Source: Escherichia coli (GTDB lineage: Bacteria; Pseudomonadota; Gammaproteobacteria; Enterobacterales; Enterobacteriaceae). From it: DNA of 64,000 nucleotides. The notes beneath the pieces are model-generated. The model worked only from the letters and a program-made list of their open reading frames with translations. It did not search any database and was not told the DNA's origin. Below are positions 22,697-64,000 of this stretch, piece by piece; the stretch's first letter is position 1; every line of letters begins with the position of its first letter. The stretch lies in assembly GCF_003790525.1 (NCBI RefSeq), contig NZ_CP033635.1; one strand, 5' to 3'. Position numbers and translations under genes: made by a program.

Positions 22697-22861
22697 GCCT
22701 TATCTCCACCTCTTCGCGTCATTACGCGGTATTCATTAAAGTGGCGAAAGCATGACAGCAATCACAAAAAAATGAAAATAACAAAAAGAGAAAACACTTT
22801 TGCCATTTTGCTAACAAACAGGAAGGAGATGCGAGGGAGAACGCGCTCCCTCGAGAGGAAA

Positions 22862-22951
22862 TCAGTGCAGCGCGGCAGTCAAACCCACGGCCACGATCAA
22901 ACCGAGGACGATAATCGTTGTTACCAGTGAAAATTTAAGGTCGGTGCTCAT
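22862..22951 (-). CDS. ynhF: 29-aa small membrane protein
   Basis: ATG 22951 with AAGGAG RBS 7 nt upstream; translation MSTDLKFSLVTTIIVLGLIVAVGLTAALH, stop TGA 22862..22864; below the ORF-track size cut-off; matches the YnhF I recall; hairpin 22832..22853 follows. Confidence 0.7.
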   Translation of the reverse strand: MSTDLKFSLVTTIIVLGLIVAVGLTAALH

Positions 22952-23189
22952 CAAGTTTTCTCCTTTTTTATTACCACACAAAAAGTGATATTACGCATTT
23001 TTACACACTGTGATGAAAAAATCTCCCGTCATTTATAATGATAAGTGTTTTTACCACTTCCCCTTTTCGTCAAGATCGGCCAAAATTCCACGCTTACACT
23101 ATTTGCGTACTGGCCATTGACCCCTTCCTGACGCTCCGTGTCGTTTTTCCGGCGTACCGCAACACTTTTGTTGTGCGTAAGGTGTGTAA

Positions 23190-23205
23190 AGGCAAACGTT
23201 TACCT
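23190..23205. promoter_or_regulatory. PurR operator O1 (AGGCAAACGTTTACCT)
   Basis: 16-bp match to pur-box core GCAAACGTTT, 45 bp upstream of purR ATG. Confidence 0.6.
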
Positions 23206-23249
23206 TGCGATTTTGCAGGAGCTGAAGTTAGGGTCTGGAGTGAAATGGA

Positions 23250-31840: not shown

Positions 31841-31917
31841 GCGTTCATAGCTCAGTTGGTTAGAGCACCACCTTGACATGGTGGGGGTCGTTGGTTCGAG
31901 TCCAATTGAACGCACCA
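31841..31917 (+). tRNA. valV: tRNA-Val (anticodon GAC)
   Basis: 77-nt cloverleaf: GCGTTCATAGCTCAGTTGGTTAGAGC D-arm, anticodon loop CTTGACAT, GGTTCGAGTCC T-arm, encoded CCA. Confidence 0.95.
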
Positions 31918-31921
31918 TCCT

Positions 31922-31998
31922 GCGTCCGTAGCTCAGTTGGTTAGAGCACCACCTTGACATGGTGGGGGTCGGTGGTTCGAGTCCACTCGGACGCACCA
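31922..31998 (+). tRNA. valW: tRNA-Val (anticodon GAC)
   Basis: second 77-nt copy 4 nt after the first (GCGTCCGTAGCTCAGTTGGTTAGAGC...ACGCACCA); weak hairpin plus T-run follows at about 31995..32030. Confidence 0.95.
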
Positions 31999-32106
31999 GA
32001 TTTTCTTAATCTGGTCTTCTCCTTTTTTCCCTCTGTTTCTTCTCTGTATCCAATACGTTAAAAGATTTACACTGTCTTCGTATGCGTTATCAGTAGGAGA
32101 ATCGCT

Positions 32107-32412
32107 ATGGCAACTTTGTTACAACTTCATTTTTCTTTCAATGGCCCATTTGGCGACGCAATGGCTGAGCAGCTTAAACCTCTTGCTGAGTCGATTAATC
32201 AGGAACCTGGTTTTCTGTGGAAGGTATGGACAGAAAGTGAAAAGAACCACGAAGCCGGTGGGATCTACCTTTTTACTGATGAAAAAAGCGCCCTTGCCTA
32301 TCTGGAAAAACATACTGCCCGACTGAAAAATCTCGGCGTTGAGGAAGTTGTCGCCAAAGTTTTCGATGTCAATGAGCCACTGAGTCAAATCAATCAGGCA
32401 AAACTCGCCTGA
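32107..32412 (+). CDS. ydhR: putative monooxygenase, small ABM-like protein
   Basis: 101 aa [32 protein letters not shown]... recognised as YdhR. Confidence 0.88.
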
Positions 32413-50079: not shown

Positions 50080-50110
50080 CCCTTAAGTCTGTGCGACACA
50101 GGCTTAAGGG
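50080..50110 (-). terminator. long hairpin with minus-strand U-tract; possible 3-prime end of sRNA RydB or other minus-strand transcript
   Basis: cccttaag(tctgtg-cga-cacagg)cttaaggg; on the minus strand the stem is followed by TTTTCTTATTTCT. Confidence 0.45.
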
Positions 50111-50335
50111 TTTCTACCCCATCCGGCGCTTATCTCCGGCACTCTCAGTGGCTTAGCTCTTGAAGGGGCGATAAGAATAATCTCATAAAGCTAACCCGCC
50201 GTTTTAACACAAACTGCGATTAGTATTATTTTTGAACAATATCAGGCGGGTAGATAAGCAGTATTAAGAAGGCCATCGAACCTGGACGGAGATTAATCCA
50301 GGTCGATATGGCGAACTTGCGGCATTAAGTCAGGA

Positions 50336-55617: not shown

Positions 55618-55774
55618 TGTTAACCCCTGCTAATTGATATTTGCTTGCTCTTCCCCATATTTTCCTGCTTACCGCCATTCAGCTGGTAGTACCTGTCGCA
55701 AATTCTTTACAGTTTTTAAACTAATGAGACGAATCTGATCGACGCAAAAAGTCCGTATGCCTACTATTAGCTCA

Positions 55775-55880
55775 CGGTTATAAATCAACATATTGATTTA
55801 TAAGCATGGAAATCCCCTGAGTGAAACAACGAATTGCTGTGTGTAGTCTTTGCCCATCTCCCACGATGGGCTTTTTTTTA
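55775..55880 (+). ncRNA. rprA: RprA small regulatory RNA
   Basis: ACGGTTATAAATCAACATATTGATTTATAAGCATGGAAATCCCCTGAGTGAAACAACGAATTGCTGTGTGTAGTCTTTGCCCATCTCCCACGATGGGC + T8 matches the RprA sequence I recall. Confidence 0.9.
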
Positions 55881-56016
55881 ACATTTTTCCGCTTCGCCAC
55901 CTCGCCCCTCACGCTTTCCAATAATGTTGCACAAGATACTGTGACTCTCTTCAAGCCGTCAGCAGGCTGATAATGTTATTTATATTTTATTGTTTATTTC
56001 ATGCAGCCATTACACG

Positions 56017-56472: not shown

Positions 56473-57687
56473 ATGAAAAATCCCTATTACCCTACCGCAC
56501 TGGGGTTGTATTTTAATTATCTGGTGCATGGTATGGGCGTCATTTTGATGAGCCTGAATATGGCCTCGCTGGAGACGCTTTGGCAGACTAATGCCGCGGG
56601 CGTCTCGATAGTTATCTCATCACTGGGCATTGGTCGATTAAGTGTCTTGCTTTTTGCAGGATTATTATCCGATCGCTTTGGTCGCCGCCCTTTTATCATG
56701 CTCGGGATGTGCTGCTATATGGCCTTCTTTTTTGGCATCCTGCACACCAATAACATCATTATCGCTTATGTTTTTGGCTTTCTGGCGGGAATGGCAAACA
56801 GTTTTCTCGATGCAGGCACCTATCCCAGTTTGATGGAAGCTTTTCCACGCTCACCGGGTACAGCCAATATTTTAATTAAAGCATTTGTTTCCAGCGGACA
56901 ATTTTTATTACCGCTAATTATCAGCCTGTTAGTGTGGGCTGAACTGTGGTTCGGTTGGTCCTTTATGATTGCCGCAGGCATTATGTTTATTAACGCTCTG
57001 TTTTTATACCGTTGTACGTTCCCACCCCATCCGGGTCGTCGCTTACCTGTCATAAAGAAAACCACCAGCTCTACGGAACATCGCTGTTCAATTATCGATT
57101 TAGCCAGTTATACCTTATATGGCTATATCTCAATGGCAACGTTTTATCTGGTTAGCCAGTGGCTGGCACAATACGGACAATTTGTTGCAGGCATGTCATA
57201 CACTATGTCGATCAAACTACTCAGTATCTACACCGTGGGTTCGCTGCTTTGTGTATTTATTACCGCTCCACTCATTCGTAATACCGTTCGCCCAACAACA
57301 TTACTGATGCTGTACACCTTTATCTCATTTATCGCCCTGCTCACCGTCTGCCTGCATCCCACATTTTATGTGGTGATAATATTTGCTTTCGTCATCGGTT
57401 TTACCTCCGCAGGCGGTGTTGTACAAATTGGCCTGACGTTAATGGCGGAACGTTTTCCCTACGCTAAAGGAAAAGCAACGGGGATCTATTACAGTGCGGG
57501 CAGCATTGCAACATTTACCATTCCGTTGATTACGGCTCATCTTTCGCAAAGAAGTATTGCCGATATTATGTGGTTCGATACCGCCATCGCTGCCATCGGC
57601 TTTATACTGGCACTGTTTATTGGCTTACGCAGTCGCAAAGAAACGCGGCATCACTCGCTAAAGGAAAATGTCGCTCCGGGTGGGTAA
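56473..57687 (+). CDS. ydiM: MFS transporter
   Basis: 404 aa 12-TM ORF MKNPYYPTALGLYFNYLVHGMGVILMSLNMASLETLWQ...; paralog of downstream ydiN. Confidence 0.9.
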   Translation: MKNPYYPTALGLYFNYLVHGMGVILMSLNMASLETLWQTNAAGVSIVISSLGIGRLSVLLFAGLLSDRFGRRPFIMLGMCCYMAFFFGILHTNNIIIAYVFGFLAGMANSFLDAGTYPSLMEAFPRSPGTANILIKAFVSSGQFLLPLIISLLVWAELWFGWSFMIAAGIMFINALFLYRCTFPPHPGRRLPVIKKTTSSTEHRCSIIDLASYTLYGYISMATFYLVSQWLAQYGQFVAGMSYTMSIKLLSIYTVGSLLCVFITAPLIRNTVRPTTLLMLYTFISFIALLTVCLHPTFYVVIIFAFVIGFTSAGGVVQIGLTLMAERFPYAKGKATGIYYSAGSIATFTIPLITAHLSQRSIADIMWFDTAIAAIGFILALFIGLRSRKETRHHSLKENVAPGG

Positions 57688-57913
57688 TGCAATATTCTTT
57701 TCAGGTTATGCAAGATCTTACGGATAAATAACTCTTTCTGCGCTAACTAAGGAAAATCGCGATCAAAAACAAACTATGACATGCAATATTCCTGGAAACA
57801 TAAACTTTATGCCATGTACACAGGGAAAATCATCTTCAGTATAGTAATTATGTAAACCGTCGGAGAACAATACGTACGGTAACGAAATTATCTTTCAGCA
57901 AGGAGCTGTGAAA

Positions 57914-59179
57914 ATGTCTCAAAATAAGGCTTTCAGCACGCCATTTATCCTGGCTGTTCTTTGTATTTACTTCAGCTATTTCCTGCACGGCATTAGTGTT
58001 ATTACGCTTGCCCAAAACATGACATCTCTGGCAGAAAAGTTTTCCACTGACAACGCGGGCATTGCCTATTTAATTTCCGGTATCGGTTTGGGGCGATTGA
58101 TCAGTATTTTATTCTTCGGTGTGATCTCCGATAAGTTTGGTCGTCGGGCGGTGATATTAATGGCAGTAATAATGTATCTGCTATTCTTCTTTGGTATTCC
58201 TGCTTGCCCGAATTTAACTCTCGCCTACTGTCTGGCAGTGTGCGTAGGTATCGCTAACTCAGCGCTGGATACGGGTGGCTACCCCGCGCTCATGGAATGC
58301 TTTCCGAAAGCCTCTGGTTCGGCGGTCATACTGGTTAAAGCGATGGTGTCATTCGGGCAAATGTTCTACCCAATGCTGGTGAGCTATATGTTGCTCAATA
58401 ACATCTGGTACGGCTATGGGCTGATTATTCCGGGTATTCTGTTTGTACTGATCACGCTGATGCTGTTGAAAAGCAAATTCCCCAGCCAGTTGGTGGACGC
58501 CAGCGTAGCTAATGAATTACCGCAAATGAACAGCAAACCGTTAGTCTGGCTGGAAGGTGTTTCATCAGTACTGTTCGGTGTAGCCGCATTCTCGACCTTT
58601 TATGTGATTGTGGTGTGGATGCCCAAATATGCGATGGCTTTTGCTGGTATGTCAGAAGCTGAGGCATTAAAAACCATCTCTTATTACAGTATGGGTTCGC
58701 TGGTCTGTGTCTTTATTTTTGCCGCACTGCTGAAAAAAATGGTCCGGCCCATCTGGGCTAATGCATTTAACTCTGCACTGGCAACAATAACAGCTGCCAT
58801 TATCTACCTGTACCCTTCTCCATTGGTGTGTAATGCCGGAGCCTTTGTTATCGGTTTCTCAGCAGCTGGCGGCATTTTACAGCTCGGCGTTTCGGTCATG
58901 TCAGAGTTTTTCCCAAAAAGCAAAGCCAAAGTCACCAGTATATATATGATGATGGGTGGACTGGCTAACTTTGTTATTCCGCTGATTACCGGTTATCTGT
59001 CGAACATCGGCCTGCAATATATCATTGTTCTCGATTTTACTTTCGCGCTGCTGGCCCTGATTACCGCAATTATTGTTTTTATCCGCTATTACCGCGTTTT
59101 CATTATTCCTGAAAATGATGTGCGGTTTGGCGAGCATAAATTTAGCACCCGGTTAAACACAATTAAGCATAGAGGTTAA
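57914..59179 (+). CDS. ydiN: MFS transporter
   Basis: track ORF starts at GTG 57908; ATG 57914 preferred (AGGAG 8 nt upstream; [26 protein letters not shown]...), 421 aa. Confidence 0.88.
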
Positions 59180-59190
59180 AGGAGTTAATT

Positions 59191-60057
59191 ATGAATGTTA
59201 CCGCAAAATACGAATTGATTGGGTTGATGGCCTATCCCATCCGCCACAGTTTATCGCCCGAAATGCAGAATAAAGCCTTAGAAAAAGCGGGATTGCCATT
59301 TACCTATATGGCCTTTGAAGTGGATAACGATAGTTTTCCCGCAGCAATTGAAGGATTAAAAGCCCTCAAAATGCGTGGAACTGGTGTGTCGATGCCGAAC
59401 AAACAACTGGCGTGTGAATATGTTGATGAATTAACGCCAGCGGCCAAACTGGTGGGTGCCATCAACACCATCGTTAATGATGATGGCTATCTGCGTGGCT
59501 ATAACACCGACGGCACGGGTCATATTCGCGCCATTAAAGAGAGCGGTTTTGATATCAAAGGCAAAACGATGGTGCTATTAGGGGCCGGTGGTGCCTCAAC
59601 GGCAATTGGCGCGCAGGGGGCAATTGAAGGTTTAAAAGAAATTAAACTCTTTAACCGTCGGGATGAGTTCTTCGATAAAGCCCTCGCCTTCGCGCAGCGG
59701 GTTAACGAAAACACCGATTGTGTCGTCACGGTTACCGATCTCGCCGATCAGCAAGCCTTTGCTGAAGCCCTGGCTTCCGCCGACATTTTAACCAATGGCA
59801 CAAAAGTGGGTATGAAACCCCTTGAGAATGAATCATTGGTTCATGATATCAGTCTGTTACATCCGGGACTTCTGGTCACTGAATGCGTGTATAACCCGCA
59901 TATGACGAAGTTATTGCAGCAGGCGCAACAAGCGGGTTGCAAAACGATTGATGGATACGGCATGTTGTTGTGGCAAGGGGCTGAACAGTTCACGTTATGG
60001 ACTGGCAAAGATTTCCCTCTGGAATATGTTAAACAGGTCATGGGGTTCGGTGCCTGA
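59191..60057 (+). CDS. ydiB: quinate/shikimate 5-dehydrogenase, NAD(P)-dependent
   Basis: 288 aa [40 protein letters not shown]... recognised as YdiB; 11 bp after ydiN stop. Confidence 0.95.
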
Positions 60058-60087
60058 CAGGCTGACCGCGTGCAGAAAGGGTAAAAA

Positions 60088-60846
60088 ATGAAAACCGTAA
60101 CTGTAAAAGATCTCGTCATTGGTACGGGCGCACCTAAAATCATCGTCTCGCTGATGGCGAAAGATATCGCCAGCGTGAAATCCGAAGCTCTCGCCTATCG
60201 TGAAGCGGACTTTGATATTCTGGAATGGCGTGTTGACCACTATGCCGACCTCTCCAATGTGGAGTCTGTCATGGCGGCAGCAAAAATTCTCCGTGAAACC
60301 ATGCCAGAAAAACCGCTGCTGTTTACCTTCCGCAGTGCCAAAGAAGGCGGCGAGCAGGCGATTTCCACCGAGGCTTATATTGCACTCAATCGTGCAGCCA
60401 TCGACAGTGGCCTGGTTGATATGATCGATCTGGAGTTATTTACCGGCGATGATCAGGTTAAAGAAACCGTCGCCTACGCCCACGCGCATGATGTGAAAGT
60501 TGTCATGTCTAACCATGACTTCCATAAAACGCCGGAAGCCGAAGAAATCATTGCCCGTCTGCGCAAAATGCAGTCCTTCGACGCCGATATTCCTAAGATT
60601 GCGCTGATGCCGCAAAGTACCAGCGATGTGCTGACGTTGCTTGCCGCGACCCTGGAGATGCAGGAGCAGTATGCCGATCGTCCAATCATCACGATGTCGA
60701 TGGCAAAAACTGGCGTAATTTCTCGTCTGGCTGGTGAAGTATTTGGGTCGGCGGCAACTTTTGGTGCGGTAAAAAAAGCCTCTGCGCCAGGGCAAATCTC
60801 GGTAAATGATTTGCGTACGGTATTAACTATTTTACATCAGGCATAA
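60088..60846 (+). CDS. aroD: 3-dehydroquinate dehydratase, type I
   Basis: 252 aa [55 protein letters not shown]... Confidence 0.96.
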
Positions 60847-60991
60847 GCAATAATATTTCGGCGGGAATACCCTCCCCCGCCGAACTAAAAAAAGTATTTT
60901 TAACCGTATTTAATAAAAATATTTCGTGAGTCTCTGTGCGCTAATTCTCCATCTGGCGTAGGGAAAATCACACCTGAATCAGGAATTAACA

Positions 60992-62587
60992 ATGAAACCT
61001 GTAAAACCACCTCGTATTAATGGACGAGTGCCGGTCCTGTCGGCACAGGAAGCGGTGAATTATATTCCCGACGAAGCAACACTTTGTGTGTTAGGCGCTG
61101 GCGGCGGTATTCTGGAAGCCACCACGTTAATTACTGCTCTTGCTGATAAATATAAACAGACTCAAACACCACGTAATTTATCGATTATTAGTCCAACAGG
61201 GCTTGGCGATCGCGCCGACCGTGGCATTAGTCCGCTGGCACAAGAAGGTCTGGTGAAATGGGCATTATGCGGTCACTGGGGACAATCGCCGCGTATTTCT
61301 GATCTCGCAGAACAAAATAAAATTATTGCTTATAACTATCCACAAGGTGTACTTACACAAACCTTACGCGCCGCCGCAGCCCACCAGCCTGGTATTATTA
61401 GTGATATTGGCATCGGAACATTTGTCGATCCACGCCAGCAAGGCGGCAAACTGAATGAAGTCACTAAAGAAGACCTGATTAAACTGGTCGAGTTTGATAA
61501 CAAAGAATATCTCTATTACAAATCGATTGCGCCAGATATCGCCTTCATTCGCGCTACCACCTGCGACAGCGAAGGCTACGCCACTTTTGAAGATGAGGTG
61601 ATGTATCTCGACGCATTGGTTATTGCTCAGGCGGTGCACAATAACGGCGGTATTGTGATGATGCAGGTGCAGAAAATGGTTAAGAAAGCCACGCTGCATC
61701 CTAAATCTGTCCGTATTCCGGGTTATCTGGTGGATATTGTGGTGGTCGATCCGGATCAAACCCAACTGTATGGCGGTGCACCGGTTAACCGCTTTATTTC
61801 TGGTGACTTCACCCTTGATGACAGTACCAAACTTAGCCTGCCCCTAAACCAACGTAAATTAGTTGCGCGGCGCGCATTATTCGAAATGCGCAAAGGCGCA
61901 GTGGGGAATGTCGGCGTCGGTATTGCTGACGGCATTGGCCTGGTCGCCCGGGAAGAAGGTTGTGCTGATGACTTTATTCTGACGGTAGAAACAGGTCCGA
62001 TTGGCGGTATTACTTCACAGGGGATCGCCTTTGGCGCGAACGTGAATACCCGCGCCATTCTGGATATGACGTCCCAGTTTGATTTTTATCACGGTGGTGG
62101 TCTGGATGTTTGTTATTTGAGTTTTGCTGAAGTCGACCAGCACGGTAACGTCGGCGTGCATAAATTCAATGGTAAAATCATGGGCACCGGTGGATTTATT
62201 GATATCAGTGCCACTTCGAAGAAAATCGTGTTCTGCGGCACATTAACTGCGGGCAGTTTAAAAACAGAAATTACCGACGGCAAATTAAATATCGTCCAGG
62301 AAGGACGGGTGAAGAAATTTATTCGGGAACTACCGGAAATAACTTTCAGCGGAAAAATCGCTCTCGAGCGAGGGCTGGATGTTCGTTATATCACTGAGCG
62401 CGCCGTATTCACGTTAAAAGAAGACGGCCTGCATTTAATCGAAATCGCTCCTGGCGTCGATTTACAAAAAGATATTTTCGACAAAATGGATTTCACCCCA
62501 GTGATTTCGCCAGAACTCAAACTGATGGACGAAAGATTATTTATCGATGCGGCGATGGGTTTTGTCCTGCCTGAAGCGGCTCATTAA
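60992..62587 (+). CDS. ydiF: fused acyl-CoA:acetate CoA-transferase (alpha/beta subunits)
   Basis: 531 aa ORF MKPVKPPRINGRVPVLSAQEAVNYIPDEATLCVLGAGGG... Confidence 0.9.
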   Translation: MKPVKPPRINGRVPVLSAQEAVNYIPDEATLCVLGAGGGILEATTLITALADKYKQTQTPRNLSIISPTGLGDRADRGISPLAQEGLVKWALCGHWGQSPRISDLAEQNKIIAYNYPQGVLTQTLRAAAAHQPGIISDIGIGTFVDPRQQGGKLNEVTKEDLIKLVEFDNKEYLYYKSIAPDIAFIRATTCDSEGYATFEDEVMYLDALVIAQAVHNNGGIVMMQVQKMVKKATLHPKSVRIPGYLVDIVVVDPDQTQLYGGAPVNRFISGDFTLDDSTKLSLPLNQRKLVARRALFEMRKGAVGNVGVGIADGIGLVAREEGCADDFILTVETGPIGGITSQGIAFGANVNTRAILDMTSQFDFYHGGGLDVCYLSFAEVDQHGNVGVHKFNGKIMGTGGFIDISATSKKIVFCGTLTAGSLKTEITDGKLNIVQEGRVKKFIRELPEITFSGKIALERGLDVRYITERAVFTLKEDGLHLIEIAPGVDLQKDIFDKMDFTPVISPELKLMDERLFIDAAMGFVLPEAAH

Positions 62588-62600
62588 CAGGAGTATAATG

Positions 62601-63752
62601 ATGGATTTTTCTTTAACTGAAGAACAAGAACTGCTGCTGGCCAGTATTCGCGAACTGATTACGACTAACTTTCCGGAAGAGTATTTCCGCACCTGCGATC
62701 AAAACGGGACATACCCGCGTGAGTTTATGCGGGCACTGGCGGATAACGGTATTTCCATGCTTGGCGTGCCGGAAGAATTTGGTGGTATCCCTGCGGATTA
62801 CGTCACCCAAATGCTGGCGCTGATGGAAGTGTCAAAATGCGGTGCTCCGGCATTTTTGATTACCAACGGTCAATGTATTCACAGTATGCGCCGTTTCGGT
62901 TCTGCAGAGCAGCTACGTAAAACGGCAGAGAGCACACTGGAAACGGGTGATCCCGCCTATGCCCTGGCATTGACGGAGCCAGGCGCAGGCTCAGACAACA
63001 ACAGTGCCACTACCACTTACACGCGTAAAAACGGCAAGGTTTACATCAACGGACAGAAAACCTTTATTACCGGTGCGAAAGAGTATCCATATATGCTGGT
63101 GTTGGCGCGCGATCCGCAACCGAAAGATCCGAAAAAGGCCTTTACTCTGTGGTGGGTCGACTCCAGTAAACCCGGCATTAAAATCAATCCACTGCATAAA
63201 ATCGGCTGGCATATGCTCAGCACCTGCGAAGTCTATCTCGACAACGTGGAAGTTGAAGAGAGCGACATGGTGGGCGAAGAAGGAATGGGTTTCCTCAATG
63301 TGATGTACAACTTTGAGATGGAGCGCCTGATCAACGCCGCGCGCAGCACCGGCTTTGCCGAATGCGCATTCGAAGATGCCGCCCGCTATGCCAACCAGCG
63401 TATCGCTTTTGGTAAGCCCATTGGTCATAACCAGATGATCCAGGAAAAACTGGCGCTGATGGCGATTAAGATCGACAACATGCGCAACATGGTGTTGAAA
63501 GTGGCATGGCAAGCCGATCAGCATCAGTCACTGCGCACCAGCGCGGCGCTGGCAAAACTGTACTGCGCACGTACCGCAATGGAAGTCATTGATGATGCGA
63601 TTCAAATCATGGGCGGTCTGGGCTATACCGATGAGGCGCGCGTGTCCCGCTTCTGGCGTGATGTCCGTTGTGAACGTATCGGCGGCGGTACAGACGAAAT
63701 TATGATTTACGTAGCGGGTCGGCAGATCCTGAAAGATTATCAGAACAAATAA
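62601..63752 (+). CDS. ydiO: acyl-CoA dehydrogenase family protein
   Basis: ORF 62547..63752; start placed at ATG 62601 (AGGAG 7 nt upstream; MDFSLTEEQELLLASIRELITTNFPEEYF...), 383 aa. Confidence 0.9.
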   Translation: MDFSLTEEQELLLASIRELITTNFPEEYFRTCDQNGTYPREFMRALADNGISMLGVPEEFGGIPADYVTQMLALMEVSKCGAPAFLITNGQCIHSMRRFGSAEQLRKTAESTLETGDPAYALALTEPGAGSDNNSATTTYTRKNGKVYINGQKTFITGAKEYPYMLVLARDPQPKDPKKAFTLWWVDSSKPGIKINPLHKIGWHMLSTCEVYLDNVEVEESDMVGEEGMGFLNVMYNFEMERLINAARSTGFAECAFEDAARYANQRIAFGKPIGHNQMIQEKLALMAIKIDNMRNMVLKVAWQADQHQSLRTSAALAKLYCARTAMEVIDDAIQIMGGLGYTDEARVSRFWRDVRCERIGGGTDEIMIYVAGRQILKDYQNK

Positions 63753-63758
63753 TCTGCA

Positions 63759-63790
63759 GGCGGCGCAGCTTCTTAACAAACTGCGCCGCC
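63759..63790. terminator. bidirectional hairpin between convergent ydiO and ydiP
   Basis: 10-bp GC stem ggcggcgcag / ctgcgccgcc with 12-nt loop between the two stops. Confidence 0.45.
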
Positions 63791-63794
63791 AGAT

Positions 63795-64000
63795 TTATCC
63801 GGCAAGACTTACTGGTTGAGGAAATTCAGATAGGATTTCTTGTTCCGCAAAACAGTTTTTAAATTGCCTGCGGTAATCGCTGGGCGAACAGCCGACATGG
63901 CGCAAAAACAGTTTGGCAAAGTGATCGACATTTTCATAACCCACACGCCAGGAAATCTCTGCCTGTGATAATTCAGTATTAGTGAGTGACCATTTCGCTT
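63795..64000 (-). CDS. ydiP: AraC/XylS-family regulator, C-terminal part only (5-prime end beyond window)
   Basis: hand translation of the minus strand gives ...FAKLFLRHVGCSPSDYRRQFKNCFAEQEILSEFPQPVSLAG-stop (TAA 63795..63797), the AraC HTH C-terminal signature; absent from ORF track because partial. Confidence 0.7.
   Translation of the reverse strand, partial: AKWSLTNTELSQAEISWRVGYENVDHFAKLFLRHVGCSPSDYRRQFKNCFAEQEILSEFPQPVSLAG

Follow-up and report, generated by a model that had tools for sequence, protein, structure and literature searches.

Organization of the ydiF-ydiO region

The segment from 60992 to 64000 of the window (the whole 64,000-nucleotide stretch of DNA that was analysed) consists of ydiF, ydiO, a GC-rich hairpin and the 3' end of the convergent gene ydiP, as read from the open reading frame list and the sequence. 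It matches the SMS-3-5 strain of E. coli at 100% identity, and a 3.3-kb stretch annotated ydiF/ydiO/ydiP is 100% identical to many E. coli chromosomes. Of 5426 complete E. coli genomes, 5425 contain this stretch, so that chance is ruled out for it. The region is the core-genome E. coli ydiF-ydiO pair, followed by a hairpin that resembles a terminator and by the last part of ydiP; its gene content was already annotated, and nothing is new in the gene pair as such. The features are:

60992-62587, plus strand: ydiF, fused family I CoA-transferase, 531 amino acids (open reading frame list, sequence, profile and structure matches)
62588-62600, plus strand: ydiF-ydiO spacer, 13 bp, with GGAG at 62590-62593 (read from the sequence)
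62601-63752, plus strand: ydiO, FAD acyl-CoA dehydrogenase-fold enzyme of the CaiA clade, 383 amino acids, beginning MDFSLTEEQ
63759-63790, no strand assigned: GC hairpin between convergent ydiO and ydiP, with a perfect 10-bp stem and a 12-nt loop
63795-64000, minus strand: 3' end of ydiP, C-terminal helix-turn-helix part of an AraC-family protein, running off the window (open reading frame list, HTH_18 match)

As originally predicted, ydiO follows the TAA stop codon of ydiF (62585-62587) after 13 bp; its start at 62601 is the one that RefSeq annotates in the identical sequence of SMS-3-5, and the gap has a median of about 16 bp across 40 other genomes. The GGAG in the spacer is a putative ribosome-binding site, implying translational coupling of the two genes. 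The predicted gene identities (a fused CoA-transferase, an acyl-CoA dehydrogenase and an AraC-type regulator) were upheld by profile and structure matches, as described below.

The predicted hairpin was found in the 42-bp ydiO-ydiP gap (63753-63794), where GGCGGCGCAG (63759-63768) pairs with CTGCGCCGCC (63781-63790). The fold has a free energy of -24.6 kcal/mol (z -3.8), and one of 200 shuffled sequences was equally stable. The tails beside this strong stem are moderately T-rich at most (AGATTTAT on the plus strand, ATTATTTGTT on the minus strand), making the T-tracts weak, and a second, smaller stem of 5 bp on the minus strand (63754-63768) overlaps only the left arm of the 10-bp hairpin. The hairpin is probably a bidirectional terminator.

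The gene ydiP, with its stop codon at 63795-63797 on the minus strand, lies tail-to-tail with ydiO and head-to-head with ydiQ. Its 67 residues in the window match HTH_18/AraC at 3e-12 and include the C-terminal double helix-turn-helix, and the translated peptide ends in RHVGCSPSDYRRQFKNCFAEQEILSEFPQPVSLAG, exactly as had been derived by hand. The full gene in the identical SMS-3-5 genome encodes 303 amino acids, whose matches to the AraC, RhaS and HpaA models all fall short of the cutoffs. According to RefSeq, the gene order is ydiF-ydiO-ydiP-ydiQRST-fadK, of which the part from ydiP onwards extends beyond the window and was taken from SMS-3-5.

YdiF, a family I CoA-transferase

YdiF matches PF01144 (CoA_trans) at 6e-49 in a profile search. 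Residues 17-252 are subunit-A-like (TIGR02429) and residues 287-492 are subunit-B-like (TIGR02428), and the structures of AtoD and AtoA align with the two halves; this fold, with both halves in one chain, is that of the single-chain YdiF/Pct-type family I. Structures of E. coli YdiF have already been solved (PDB 2AHU, 2AHV and 2AHW), and 526 of 531 residues are identical to 2AHU (1186 bits), the strain-level differences being S178, T257, V413, T428 and F496. The genes are the same as K-12 ydiF (b1694) and ydiO (b1695), strain-level substitutions apart. The catalytic Glu333 lies within the motif TVETGPIGG; both the E-x-G-x-x-G and the GxGGF motifs are present, and an alignment of 7 homologues, down to 61% identity, shows no substitution of E333 or of G398-T-G-G-F402. 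By these features YdiF is a fused family I CoA-transferase, predicted to act via a Glu333-CoA thioester.

In vitro, YdiF uses acetate and L- or D-lactate as acids with acetoacetyl-CoA, giving acetyl-CoA and L- and D-lactyl-CoA. These products, and the drop in D-lactylation on deletion of ydiF, would fit a promiscuous housekeeping enzyme for short-chain acids (acetate, lactate, acetoacetate) that sets the levels of acyl-CoAs, among them the lactyl-CoA used in lysine lactylation, with YdiO a poorly expressed generalist and the neighbourhood serving no single substrate. We consider this improbable: the assays were performed at 10 mM acid and with overexpression, and the tight translational coupling of ydiF and ydiO together with a conserved 11-gene context argues for a dedicated pathway.

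YdiO, an acyl-CoA dehydrogenase of the CaiA clade

All three acyl-CoA dehydrogenase domains, N-terminal (PF02771), middle (PF02770) and C-terminal (PF00441), were matched in YdiO, which passes its NCBIfam equivalog NF008997 with 786.9 bits (cutoff 537). It is not CaiA itself, scoring 452 bits against the CaiA cutoff of 540, and the two proteins are 48% identical. The Glu of the YdiO motif FEMER aligns with E254 of isovaleryl-CoA dehydrogenase (IVD) and T255 of medium-chain acyl-CoA dehydrogenase (MCAD), and Gly occupies the position of MCAD E376 (IGGGT versus IYEGT); CaiA and six homologues have the same pattern. YdiO is a flavoenzyme of the acyl-CoA dehydrogenase fold, a paralogue of the crotonobetainyl-CoA reductase CaiA with a predicted catalytic Glu of the isovaleryl-CoA dehydrogenase type. 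Its closest solved structures are short-chain and butyryl-CoA dehydrogenases, and CarC (6FAH_C) is a clear sequence relative. Other models gave lower scores: 234 bits for AcrC, under the cutoff of 640, and 186 and 141 bits for cyclohexane-1-carbonyl-CoA dehydrogenases.

Its paralogy to a reductase, and the use of YdiO and YdiQRST as such in engineering work, would suit a role as crotonyl/enoyl-CoA reductase in a β-oxidation that naturally runs backwards, for fermentative redox balance or butyrate formation. This role seems very improbable, as E. coli is no natural butyrate producer and the contribution of YdiQRST in engineered strains is stated in the literature to be unclear. In 2015, Vick et al. 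reportedly found that FabI supplied the reductase activity in reverse β-oxidation strains, which counts against a role of YdiO.

Electron-transfer partners and FadK

Extension of the sequence downstream, which had been proposed as a check, located electron-transfer genes: in the identical genome of SMS-3-5, ydiQRST and fadK follow directly downstream, the electron transfer flavoprotein (ETF) genes ydiQ and ydiR being 1.3 kb downstream, outside the window. The association of YdiO with an ETF partner is kept in 46 loci. YdiQR (ETF, FixAB paralogues) and YdiST (FixCX paralogues) are the predicted electron partners of YdiO; identities are 55% for YdiQ/FixA, 44% for YdiR/FixB, 61% for YdiS/FixC, 63% for YdiT/FixX and 29% for FadK/CaiC. 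Beyond its own equivalog, the best NCBIfam match of FadK is cyclohexanecarboxylate-CoA ligase (AliA family, TIGR03208) at 425 bits. FadK and YdiO are not members of the AliA or cyclohexanecarboxyl-CoA dehydrogenase families, because scores of 425, 186 and 141 bits are far below the cutoffs (792, 650 and 575).

Reviews and the titles of primary papers describe a pathway of anaerobic short-chain fatty-acid β-oxidation, in which FadK or YdiF would make the acyl-CoA, YdiO would oxidize it to enoyl-CoA, the electrons entering the quinone pool through the ETF and YdiST and ending up on nitrate or tetrathionate, and FadIJ would finish the process, with ydiB and aroD being unrelated. The short-chain and butyryl-CoA dehydrogenases that resemble YdiO most, and the annotation of FadK as a medium-chain fatty-acid-CoA ligase, agree with it. 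However, no enoyl-CoA hydratase, 3-hydroxyacyl-CoA dehydrogenase or thiolase gene was found between ydiM and ppsA in SMS-3-5, so the genes do not constitute a β-oxidation cluster (fadIJ are encoded elsewhere, according to the literature), and in the reviews evidence for YdiQR is lacking and YdiO is merely 'suggested'. We regard this published pathway as less likely than not to be the native one.

Conserved neighbourhood of ydiF and ydiO

Upstream of ydiF, on the same strand, are genes of quinate/shikimate metabolism:

57914-59179, plus strand: ydiN, MFS transporter (MFS_1 match; RefSeq annotation of SMS-3-5)
59191-60057, plus strand: ydiB, NAD-type quinate/shikimate dehydrogenase (Shikimate_dh_N, SDH_C)
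60088-60846, plus strand: aroD, type I 3-dehydroquinate dehydratase (DHquinase_I, 3e-77; annotation)
60857-60884, no strand assigned: GC-rich hairpin TTCGGCGGG...CCCGCCGAA in the 145-bp aroD-ydiF gap

YdiB scores 666.8 bits against the NCBIfam equivalog NF009390 (cutoff 349). The 156 nt from 60840 to 60995, which span the aroD-ydiF gap, have a predicted folding energy of -42 kcal/mol (z -4.0), and the hairpin there is possibly a leaky terminator of aroD. Scanning of this gap found no sigma-70-like promoter, and no candidate operator was found directly upstream of ydiF.

Of 41 species-representative genomes, 40 have ydiN-ydiB-aroD-ydiF-ydiO next to one another and in the same orientation; these cover about 10 genera of Enterobacterales and two Sutterella (Betaproteobacteria); in Sutterella, ydiQRST sits on the opposite side of the cluster. 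Host genera other than Escherichia, Citrobacter and Intestinirhabdus are mostly plant-associated or have plant-associated members. An MFS gene accompanies ydiF/ydiO in nearly all arrangements seen, and in other lineages shikimate dehydrogenase (SDH) and dehydroquinase (DHQase) genes are interposed between ETF and FixCX-like genes. The association persists, in changed order, in these arrangements:

L006: MFS-YdiF-YdiO-ETFba-SDH-DHQaseI-FixCX
L007: as L006, lacking SDH (MFS-YdiF-YdiO-ETFba-DHQaseI-FixCX)
L055: SDH-YdiF-YdiO
L056: association kept, with ApbA, MaoC and VOC genes added
L057 and L058 (the latter from Sedimentibacter): YdiF homologue adjoining a type II dehydroquinase
L059: non-orthologous acyl-CoA dehydrogenase with SDH, DHQaseI, YdiF, ligase, ETF and FixCX

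A dehydroquinase (type II included), an SDH or both are found within 5 genes of the YdiF homologue in 7 of 8 arrangement types; one YdiF homologue context, in Cloacibacillus, has no dehydroquinase. The type II dehydroquinase beside the YdiF homologue in L057 and L058 is a non-orthologous displacement. At the level of gene neighbourhood, ydiF and ydiO are thus coupled to dehydroquinase and quinate/shikimate dehydrogenase, and anaerobic β-oxidation leaves unexplained why two unrelated types of dehydroquinase/SDH gene stand beside YdiF homologues across phyla. The YdiF-type subfamily, found also alongside genes for MaoC hydratase, for an ApbA-like reductase and for a VOC-fold protein of small size, and at two loci beside type II dehydroquinase, could be part of an undescribed CoA-dependent pathway of quinate/shikimate ring processing.

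A two-box motif upstream of ydiN and ydiQ

The promoter region of ydiN contains repeated boxes:

57688-57695, plus strand: extra box TGCAATAT, 21 bp upstream of the distal box (read from the sequence)
57707-57724, plus strand: distal box TATGCAAGATCTTACGGA, 205 nt before the ydiN ATG
57780-57797, plus strand: proximal box CATGCAATATTCCTGGAA, 132 nt before the ydiN ATG and 73 bp past the distal box

The counterpart of the proximal box, TTTGCAAGATTGTTGGCA, lies 126 nt before the ATG of ydiQ, where the box spacing is likewise 73 bp. The ydiN boxes are the sole same-strand pair of TGCAAnA[T/A] sequences spaced 71-75 bp apart in the 64-kb window, compared with an expectation of about 0.01 such pairs per shuffled window. 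In about 1.2 Mb of fetched loci, TGCAAnAT pairs with a spacing of 73-74 bp were confined to the regions preceding ydiN and ydiQ, and the window has one such pair. The distal ydiN box is a candidate operator, possibly for YdiP; anaerobic β-oxidation offers no explanation for these boxes.

The conserved gene order, the interleaving of ydiB/aroD-type genes with ETF genes and the promoter motif of ydiN and ydiQ agree in giving no support to ydiF as the cluster's left edge, which had been supposed; within the window, the functional unit seems to begin further left, at ydiN (57.7 kb). The predicted short-chain acyl-CoAs may therefore be the wrong substrate class. The literature does agree with the original prediction that the native substrate is not firmly assigned.

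A proposed hydroaromatic CoA loop

The genes ydiN-ydiB-aroD-ydiF-ydiO, ydiP and ydiQRST-fadK may form one unit acting on a cyclohexene carboxylate derived from quinate or shikimate, a reading for which we find the case evenly balanced; the same balance applies to the suggestion that YdiF and YdiO might run a CoA loop like that of cai/fix to reduce a shikimate-type enoate. By analogy with cai/fix and from the gene set, the ligase would prime the cycle, YdiF would recycle CoA from product to fresh substrate, and YdiO would interconvert enoyl-CoA and acyl-CoA, exchanging electrons with the quinone pool, in one direction or the other, by way of the ETF and FixCX-like proteins. YdiN would import the hydroaromatic substrate, and YdiB and AroD would convert quinate to dehydroquinate, dehydroshikimate and shikimate. 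Shikimate (or dehydroshikimate), itself an alpha,beta-unsaturated acid, would then be converted to its CoA ester, the double bond of which would be reduced to give 'hydroshikimate' as an anaerobic electron sink; activity with butyryl-/crotonyl-CoA would be a side activity or a second role.

The hydroaromatic link is drawn because ydiN-ydiB-aroD-ydiF-ydiO are contiguous almost throughout the genomes surveyed and their association survives reshuffling elsewhere, because the TGCAAnAT box pair is common to ydiN and ydiQ only, because the next-best match of FadK is a cyclohexanecarboxylate-CoA ligase, and because Sutterella wadsworthensis, which has the ydi cluster (L044), reduces shikimate, and most other host genera are plant-associated. 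In S. wadsworthensis shikimate is a growth-stimulating electron acceptor, its enoate being reduced. The ydiQRST genes ranked near the top for differential expression in an E. coli culture overproducing shikimate, which is weak evidence because that culture had no control.

Several observations weigh against the hydroaromatic reading. Published genetics, cited as Gulevich (2016), assign ydiO/ydiQRST to a dehydrogenase complex that serves the anaerobic β-oxidation of fatty acids, published genetics also tie ydiQRSTD to butyrate use in Salmonella, and YdiF takes acetate, lactate and acetoacetyl-CoA in vitro. The aroD-ydiF hairpin is strong, with no box upstream of ydiF; the many flavin reductases of Sutterella could explain its shikimate reduction; and the context of the Cloacibacillus homologue contains no dehydroquinase. 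Part of the synteny could be historical, because aroD also encodes the biosynthetic dehydroquinase.

More broadly, and with slightly less confidence than doubt, we suggest that E. coli and many plant- and gut-associated Proteobacteria might possess a CoA-dependent hydroaromatic route, in which YdiF thioesterifies shikimate and YdiO reduces the enoate, drawing electrons out of the quinone pool through YdiST and YdiQR, a second 'shikimate respiration' unrelated to the Eggerthella flavin reductase. The evidence for ydiO and ydiQRST, all y-genes, is acknowledged to be weak. To our knowledge, why E. coli keeps a second, NAD-dependent quinate/shikimate dehydrogenase, YdiB, has gone unexplained for two decades. 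The comparative data merge these questions into one, that of ydiF/ydiO/ydiQRST-dependent anaerobic reduction of shikimate or quinate by E. coli. If this occurs, YdiB would gain its long-missing physiological role, the 'butyrate' virulence phenotype of Salmonella ydi genes would have to be reinterpreted, candidate genes would be available for the gut conversion of dietary quinate and shikimate, and the use of YdiO in reverse β-oxidation engineering would have to be rethought.

Comparison with known systems

One close likeness is to E. coli caiTABCDE/fixABCX, which respires carnitine to gamma-butyrobetaine. All six functions of such a CoA loop (transporter, CoA-transferase, priming ligase, acyl-CoA dehydrogenase-type reductase, ETF and FixCX-like pair) are represented in the ydi genes, and CaiA and YdiO have the same unusual base arrangement. 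The CoA-transferase, however, is of family I (YdiF) in ydi and family III (CaiB) in cai, ydi has no CaiD-type hydratase, its neighbours encode quinate/shikimate enzymes rather than a betaine antiporter, and its regulator is AraC-type rather than CaiF.

Caffeate respiration in Acetobacterium woodii (carABCDE) comprises the same four functions of CoA-transferase, ligase, caffeyl-CoA reductase and ETF, and its CoA loop saves ATP; the Car system bifurcates electrons to ferredoxin and acts on phenylacrylates, whereas ydi has a FixCX-like quinone link and another substrate class. In Clostridium propionicum, propionate CoA-transferase works with an ETF-dependent acryloyl-CoA reductase, the same pairing of a YdiF-type single-chain CoA-transferase with an acyl-CoA dehydrogenase/ETF enoyl-CoA reductase, but its lactyl-CoA dehydratase is absent from the ydi cluster. 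The proposed YdiO reaction would be the reverse of that of cyclohexanecarboxyl-CoA dehydrogenase, on a hydroxylated ring, since the ydi substrate would bear three hydroxyl groups. Finally, the flavin-dependent 'shikimate reductase' of Eggerthella lenta (Little et al., bioRxiv 2022.12.26.521950) disposes of electrons anaerobically by reducing the enoate of shikimate, so that the overall chemistry is like that proposed for ydi; the enzyme type is unrelated, being a respiratory-like flavin reductase of a class compared with fumarate and urocanate reductases, and it was assayed on the free acid with no mention of CoA activation (bioRxiv 2022.12.26.521950), whereas the ydi route would be CoA-dependent.

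The ydiF-ydiO-ydiP locus

The original prediction placed ydiF, ydiO 13 bp after it, a GC hairpin and the convergent ydiP, and these assignments are accurate to the base; the ydiP C-terminus that it had translated by hand is exactly the one obtained here and carries an AraC helix-turn-helix match. The hairpin was borne out by folding (dG -24.6 kcal/mol, z -3.8). The features, in window coordinates, are:

60992-62587, ydiF (531 aa)
62590-62593, GGAG within the 13-bp ydiF-ydiO spacer
62601-63752, ydiO (383 aa)
63759-63768 paired with 63781-63790, hairpin with a perfect 10-bp GC stem in the 42-bp ydiO-ydiP gap

The 3.3-kb stretch is 100% identical to that of E. coli SMS-3-5 and many other strains and is found in 5425 of 5426 complete E. 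coli genomes, annotated there as ydiF, ydiO and ydiP; the pair itself is already known and ordinary. Directly past the window end, the identical genome continues with ydiP, ydiQ, ydiR, ydiS, ydiT and fadK, and therefore the predicted electron-transfer partners (ydiQ, ydiR, ydiS and ydiT) do follow downstream. No RNA family in Rfam matched at E <= 1 within 57000-64000. A scan of the whole window gave the following matches, which have no relation to ydiF-ydiO:

22859-23249, - strand, STnc550
31841-31995, + strand, two adjacent tRNAs
31960-32123, - strand, HPnc0260 match, antisense to and overlapping the second tRNA
50109-50169, - strand, rydB
55774-55881, + strand, RprA sRNA

In E. coli strain E69 (CP089930; locus L053) ydiO is cut after about residue 71 and is followed by an opposite-strand ORF of 167 aa and then one of 792 aa, the length of PpsA; ydiP-ydiQRST-fadK looks deleted, possibly by an IS-mediated event. 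Beyond the window in SMS-3-5 (L001, 21427-25068), the interval from fadK to ppsA holds four additional genes, encoding an SDR oxidoreductase, a YhcH/YjgK/YiaL protein, a 2-hydroxyacid dehydrogenase and an anion permease, all presumably absent from K-12.

Conservation of gene order

Loci with relatives of YdiO were taken from 100,044 species-representative genomes, and the eleven E. coli ydi-cluster proteins and the upstream neighbour YdiM were mapped onto the fetched loci. Of the 41 loci with sufficient left flank, 40 have ydiN-ydiB-aroD-ydiF-ydiO as an unbroken same-strand run, the order being found in Escherichia, Citrobacter, Kosakonia, Intestinirhabdus, Yersinia, Serratia, Brenneria, Dickeya, Prodigiosinella and Symbiopectobacterium; the five-gene block is likewise intact in two Sutterella species (Betaproteobacteria), in which ydiQRST has shifted to the other flank and the other strand. 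The one locus that departs from this belongs to Enterobacter sp. EA-1 (CP025776; L052), whose cluster is decayed: ydiF is missing, ydiO (70%) and aroD (51%) persist as degraded matches, and ydiS, ydiT, ydiN and ydiP were not detected. A record titled Martelella alba BGMRC 2031 (L037) carries an Enterobacterales-type cluster in the same order (YdiO 91%), which under an alphaproteobacterial label suggests assembly contamination or mislabelling.

Synteny by descent alone is weak evidence, and lineages in which the genes have been reshuffled keep the association:

L006 (42% GC): AraC gene (- strand), then MFS-YdiF-YdiO-ETFb-ETFa-shikimate dehydrogenase-dehydroquinase I-FixC-FixX, with gaps of 11-140 bp
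L007: the L006 order without shikimate dehydrogenase and with a ligase
L055: shikimate dehydrogenase-YdiF-YdiO-ApbA-VOC
L056: association kept, with extra ApbA-like, MaoC and VOC-fold genes
L057 and L058 (the latter from a Sedimentibacter assembly): YdiF-MaoC-ApbA-VOC adjoining a type II dehydroquinase
L059: non-orthologous ACADs with shikimate dehydrogenase, MFS, dehydroquinase I, YdiF, ligase, ETF and FixCX

ACAD and ETF genes are absent from both L057 and L058, and their type II dehydroquinase is unrelated to AroD, a case of non-orthologous displacement. In seven of eight independent arrangements, a single-copy biosynthetic gene (dehydroquinase and/or shikimate dehydrogenase) lies at most five genes away from a YdiF homologue; Cloacibacillus is the sole sampled YdiF context with no dehydroquinase. 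With non-orthologous displacement among them, this is far beyond chance. The earlier interpretation is thus partly supported: right about the genes and their downstream partners, it was wrong to take ydiF as the left edge of the cluster, and possibly wrong in its substrate class, short-chain acyl-CoA.

An accessory module recurs beside YdiF homologues of the Proteobacteria-like loci and of L057 and L058 (L055, 13000-14865; L056, 16817-18745; L057, 11598-14082; L058, 10621-12989). Its members are a MaoC hydratase, together with an ApbA-like reductase and a small VOC/glyoxalase-fold protein that share 50-68% and 43-57% identity, respectively, from locus to locus; the module hints at more CoA-ester ring chemistry.

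Other YdiO-like genes were set aside as support. The homologue P0027 (74% identical) stands alone among uninformative neighbours, and genes 63-68% identical in E. albertii, Desulfovibrio and one Pectobacteriaceae genome belong to another cluster, which has a family III CoA-transferase and lacks shikimate genes. This second YdiO/CaiA-like family (L004, an Escherichia albertii-like contig; L005, Desulfovibrio desulfuricans CP036295; L008, Pectobacteriaceae CE70) is conserved with that transferase, an MFS transporter, a second ACAD and an ETF, and variably with FixCX, a ligase, desulfoferrodoxin and an AraC regulator.

Candidate regulatory sites

Shared 16-mers among the three upstream regions were not significant alone, 2-3 mismatches occurring in shuffles too; a signal emerged only when spacing, orientation and conservation were added. 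Two same-strand boxes, AATGCAAGATTGTACGGT and TTTGCAAGATTGTTGGCA, lie 73 bp apart between ydiP and ydiQ, preceding the ydiQ ATG by 199 and 126 nt, and 40 of 46 loci have the core TGCAAGAT without mismatch upstream of ydiQ. The region before ydiN has the same architecture and 73-bp spacing:

57707-57724, distal ydiN box TATGCAAGATCTTACGGA, 205 nt before the ydiN ATG
57780-57797, proximal ydiN box CATGCAATATTCCTGGAA, 132 nt before the ydiN ATG

The 64-kb window has a single same-strand pair of TGCAAnA[T/A] cores 71-75 bp apart, against an expectation of about 0.01 for a shuffled sequence, and in about 1.2 Mb of fetched loci such a pair is confined to the ydiN and ydiQ promoters, with conservation in Escherichia, Citrobacter and Intestinirhabdus. 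In L006 the core is also found, flanked by the AraC gene on one side and the MFS-ydiF-ydiO operon on the other, as it is 205 nt before ydiQ in Sutterella wadsworthensis. A third core, TGCAATAT, at 57688-57695, precedes the distal ydiN box by 21 bp, or two helical turns, a spacing that recalls AraC-type tandem half-sites.

Upstream of ydiF, PWM scans gave nothing above background, and no YdiP site is claimed there; a promoter scan found no sigma-70-like promoter in the 145-bp aroD-ydiF gap, which contains a strong hairpin at 60857-60884, and gave just two such matches, both intragenic and fewer than in shuffles. The simplest reading is that ydiN-ydiB-aroD, probably reading on into ydiFO, and ydiQRST-fadK are under one regulator, for which YdiP is the obvious candidate. 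A published ChIP-exo study placed a PtrR (YneJ) peak inside ydiF and described a growth phenotype of a ydiF mutant on putrescine/glutamate medium.

Predicted functions of YdiF and YdiO

YdiF is a single-chain family I CoA-transferase (PF01144), residues 17-252 matching the subunit-A model and 287-492 the subunit-B model. It is identical at 526 of 531 positions to the crystallised YdiF (2AHU), whose structure was reportedly described by Rangarajan and co-workers in 2005, and has the catalytic Glu333 (TVETGPIGG) and the GTGGF motif, both invariant in homologues down to 61% identity. YdiO has three acyl-CoA dehydrogenase domains, scores above its own NCBIfam equivalog cutoff, and matches cyclohexane-carbonyl-CoA dehydrogenase models with scores under theirs. 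An alignment with human MCAD and IVD, using verified segments, shows Gly at the position of the MCAD catalytic Glu376 and Glu at that of IVD Glu254 in YdiO, in CaiA and in six homologues, and therefore the base arrangement of this clade is of the IVD/LCAD type. The best family match of FadK after its own is cyclohexanecarboxylate-CoA ligase.

A possible role with hydroaromatic acids

Shikimate and 3-dehydroshikimate are 1-cyclohexene-1-carboxylates, i.e. alpha,beta-unsaturated acids whose CoA esters are enoyl-CoAs. Judged from gene content and order, there is about an even chance that ydiN through fadK form one unit acting on quinate/shikimate-type acids. YdiN would import the acid, and YdiB and AroD would convert quinate via dehydroquinate and dehydroshikimate to shikimate, a redox-neutral conversion that would account for the dual specificity of YdiB. 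FadK would prime the cycle, with CoA cycling by YdiF thereafter, and YdiO would reduce the ring double bond with electrons passing from quinol through YdiST to YdiQR, as proposed for CaiA/FixABCX; with such esters, an ACAD-fold enzyme would be catalysing the reverse of the known cyclohexanecarboxyl-CoA dehydrogenase reaction.

Older rat/gut and Lactobacillus studies reportedly describe reduction of shikimate and quinate. Shikimate is a growth-stimulating electron acceptor for S. wadsworthensis, whose genome (L044) carries the ydi cluster, its enoate being reduced; the transcriptomes of that work were from E. lenta and H. filiformis only (Little et al., bioRxiv 2022.12.26.521950). In a shikimate-overproducing E. 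coli culture, ydiQRST were among the most differentially expressed genes, weak evidence because a shikimate-free control is absent and the direction of the ratio ambiguous. In the literature collection covered, on dihydroshikimate, shikimoyl-CoA and the ydi genes alongside shikimate, no paper was found to connect the ydi cluster with these acids, an absence that does not prove novelty.

The literature usually describes the cluster as serving the beta-oxidation of fatty acids or butyrate under anaerobic conditions, and published genetics favour these substrates, the Salmonella evidence coming second-hand through reviews; reviews concede that evidence is lacking for YdiQR and that YdiO is only 'suggested'. 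The cluster has no hydratase, hydroxyacyl-CoA dehydrogenase or thiolase in the annotation of the identical genome, and its composition suits a CoA loop with a single double-bond redox step better than it does a beta-oxidation spiral. YdiF in vitro moves CoA from acetoacetyl-CoA to acetate and L- and D-lactate and influences lysine lactylation, as a generalist might, and engineered strains employ YdiO as an enoyl-CoA reductase in reverse beta-oxidation. Vick and colleagues reportedly showed in 2015 that the reductase activity of those strains comes from FabI. Given the in vitro data and the reviews' admissions, the original prediction was fair in calling the native substrate not firmly assigned. 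Against hydroaromatic acids stand the in vitro promiscuity of YdiF, the additional biosynthetic role of aroD and the many flavin reductases of Sutterella; a role with these acids is therefore put at about evenly balanced, beta-oxidation is rated possible though rather unlikely, and the probability that is left falls to a generalist or reverse-beta-oxidation role. What interest remains is that an inexpensive experiment could be decisive for YdiB and the ydiFO-QRST cluster, both of them E. coli orphans of long standing.

Comparison with the carnitine system

The second-best NCBIfam model for YdiO is the crotonobetainyl-CoA dehydrogenase CaiA and, judged by identity, the ydi proteins are paralogues of the carnitine (cai/fix) system: YdiO/CaiA 48%, YdiQ/FixA 55%, YdiR/FixB 44%, YdiS/FixC 61%, YdiT/FixX 63% and FadK/CaiC 29%. 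Walt and Kahn are said to have connected fixAB with carnitine reduction in 2002. The Car system of A. woodii serves caffeate respiration. Like cai/fix, the ydi cluster combines transporter, CoA-transferase and ligase with an ACAD-type enzyme and an ETF/FixCX chain.
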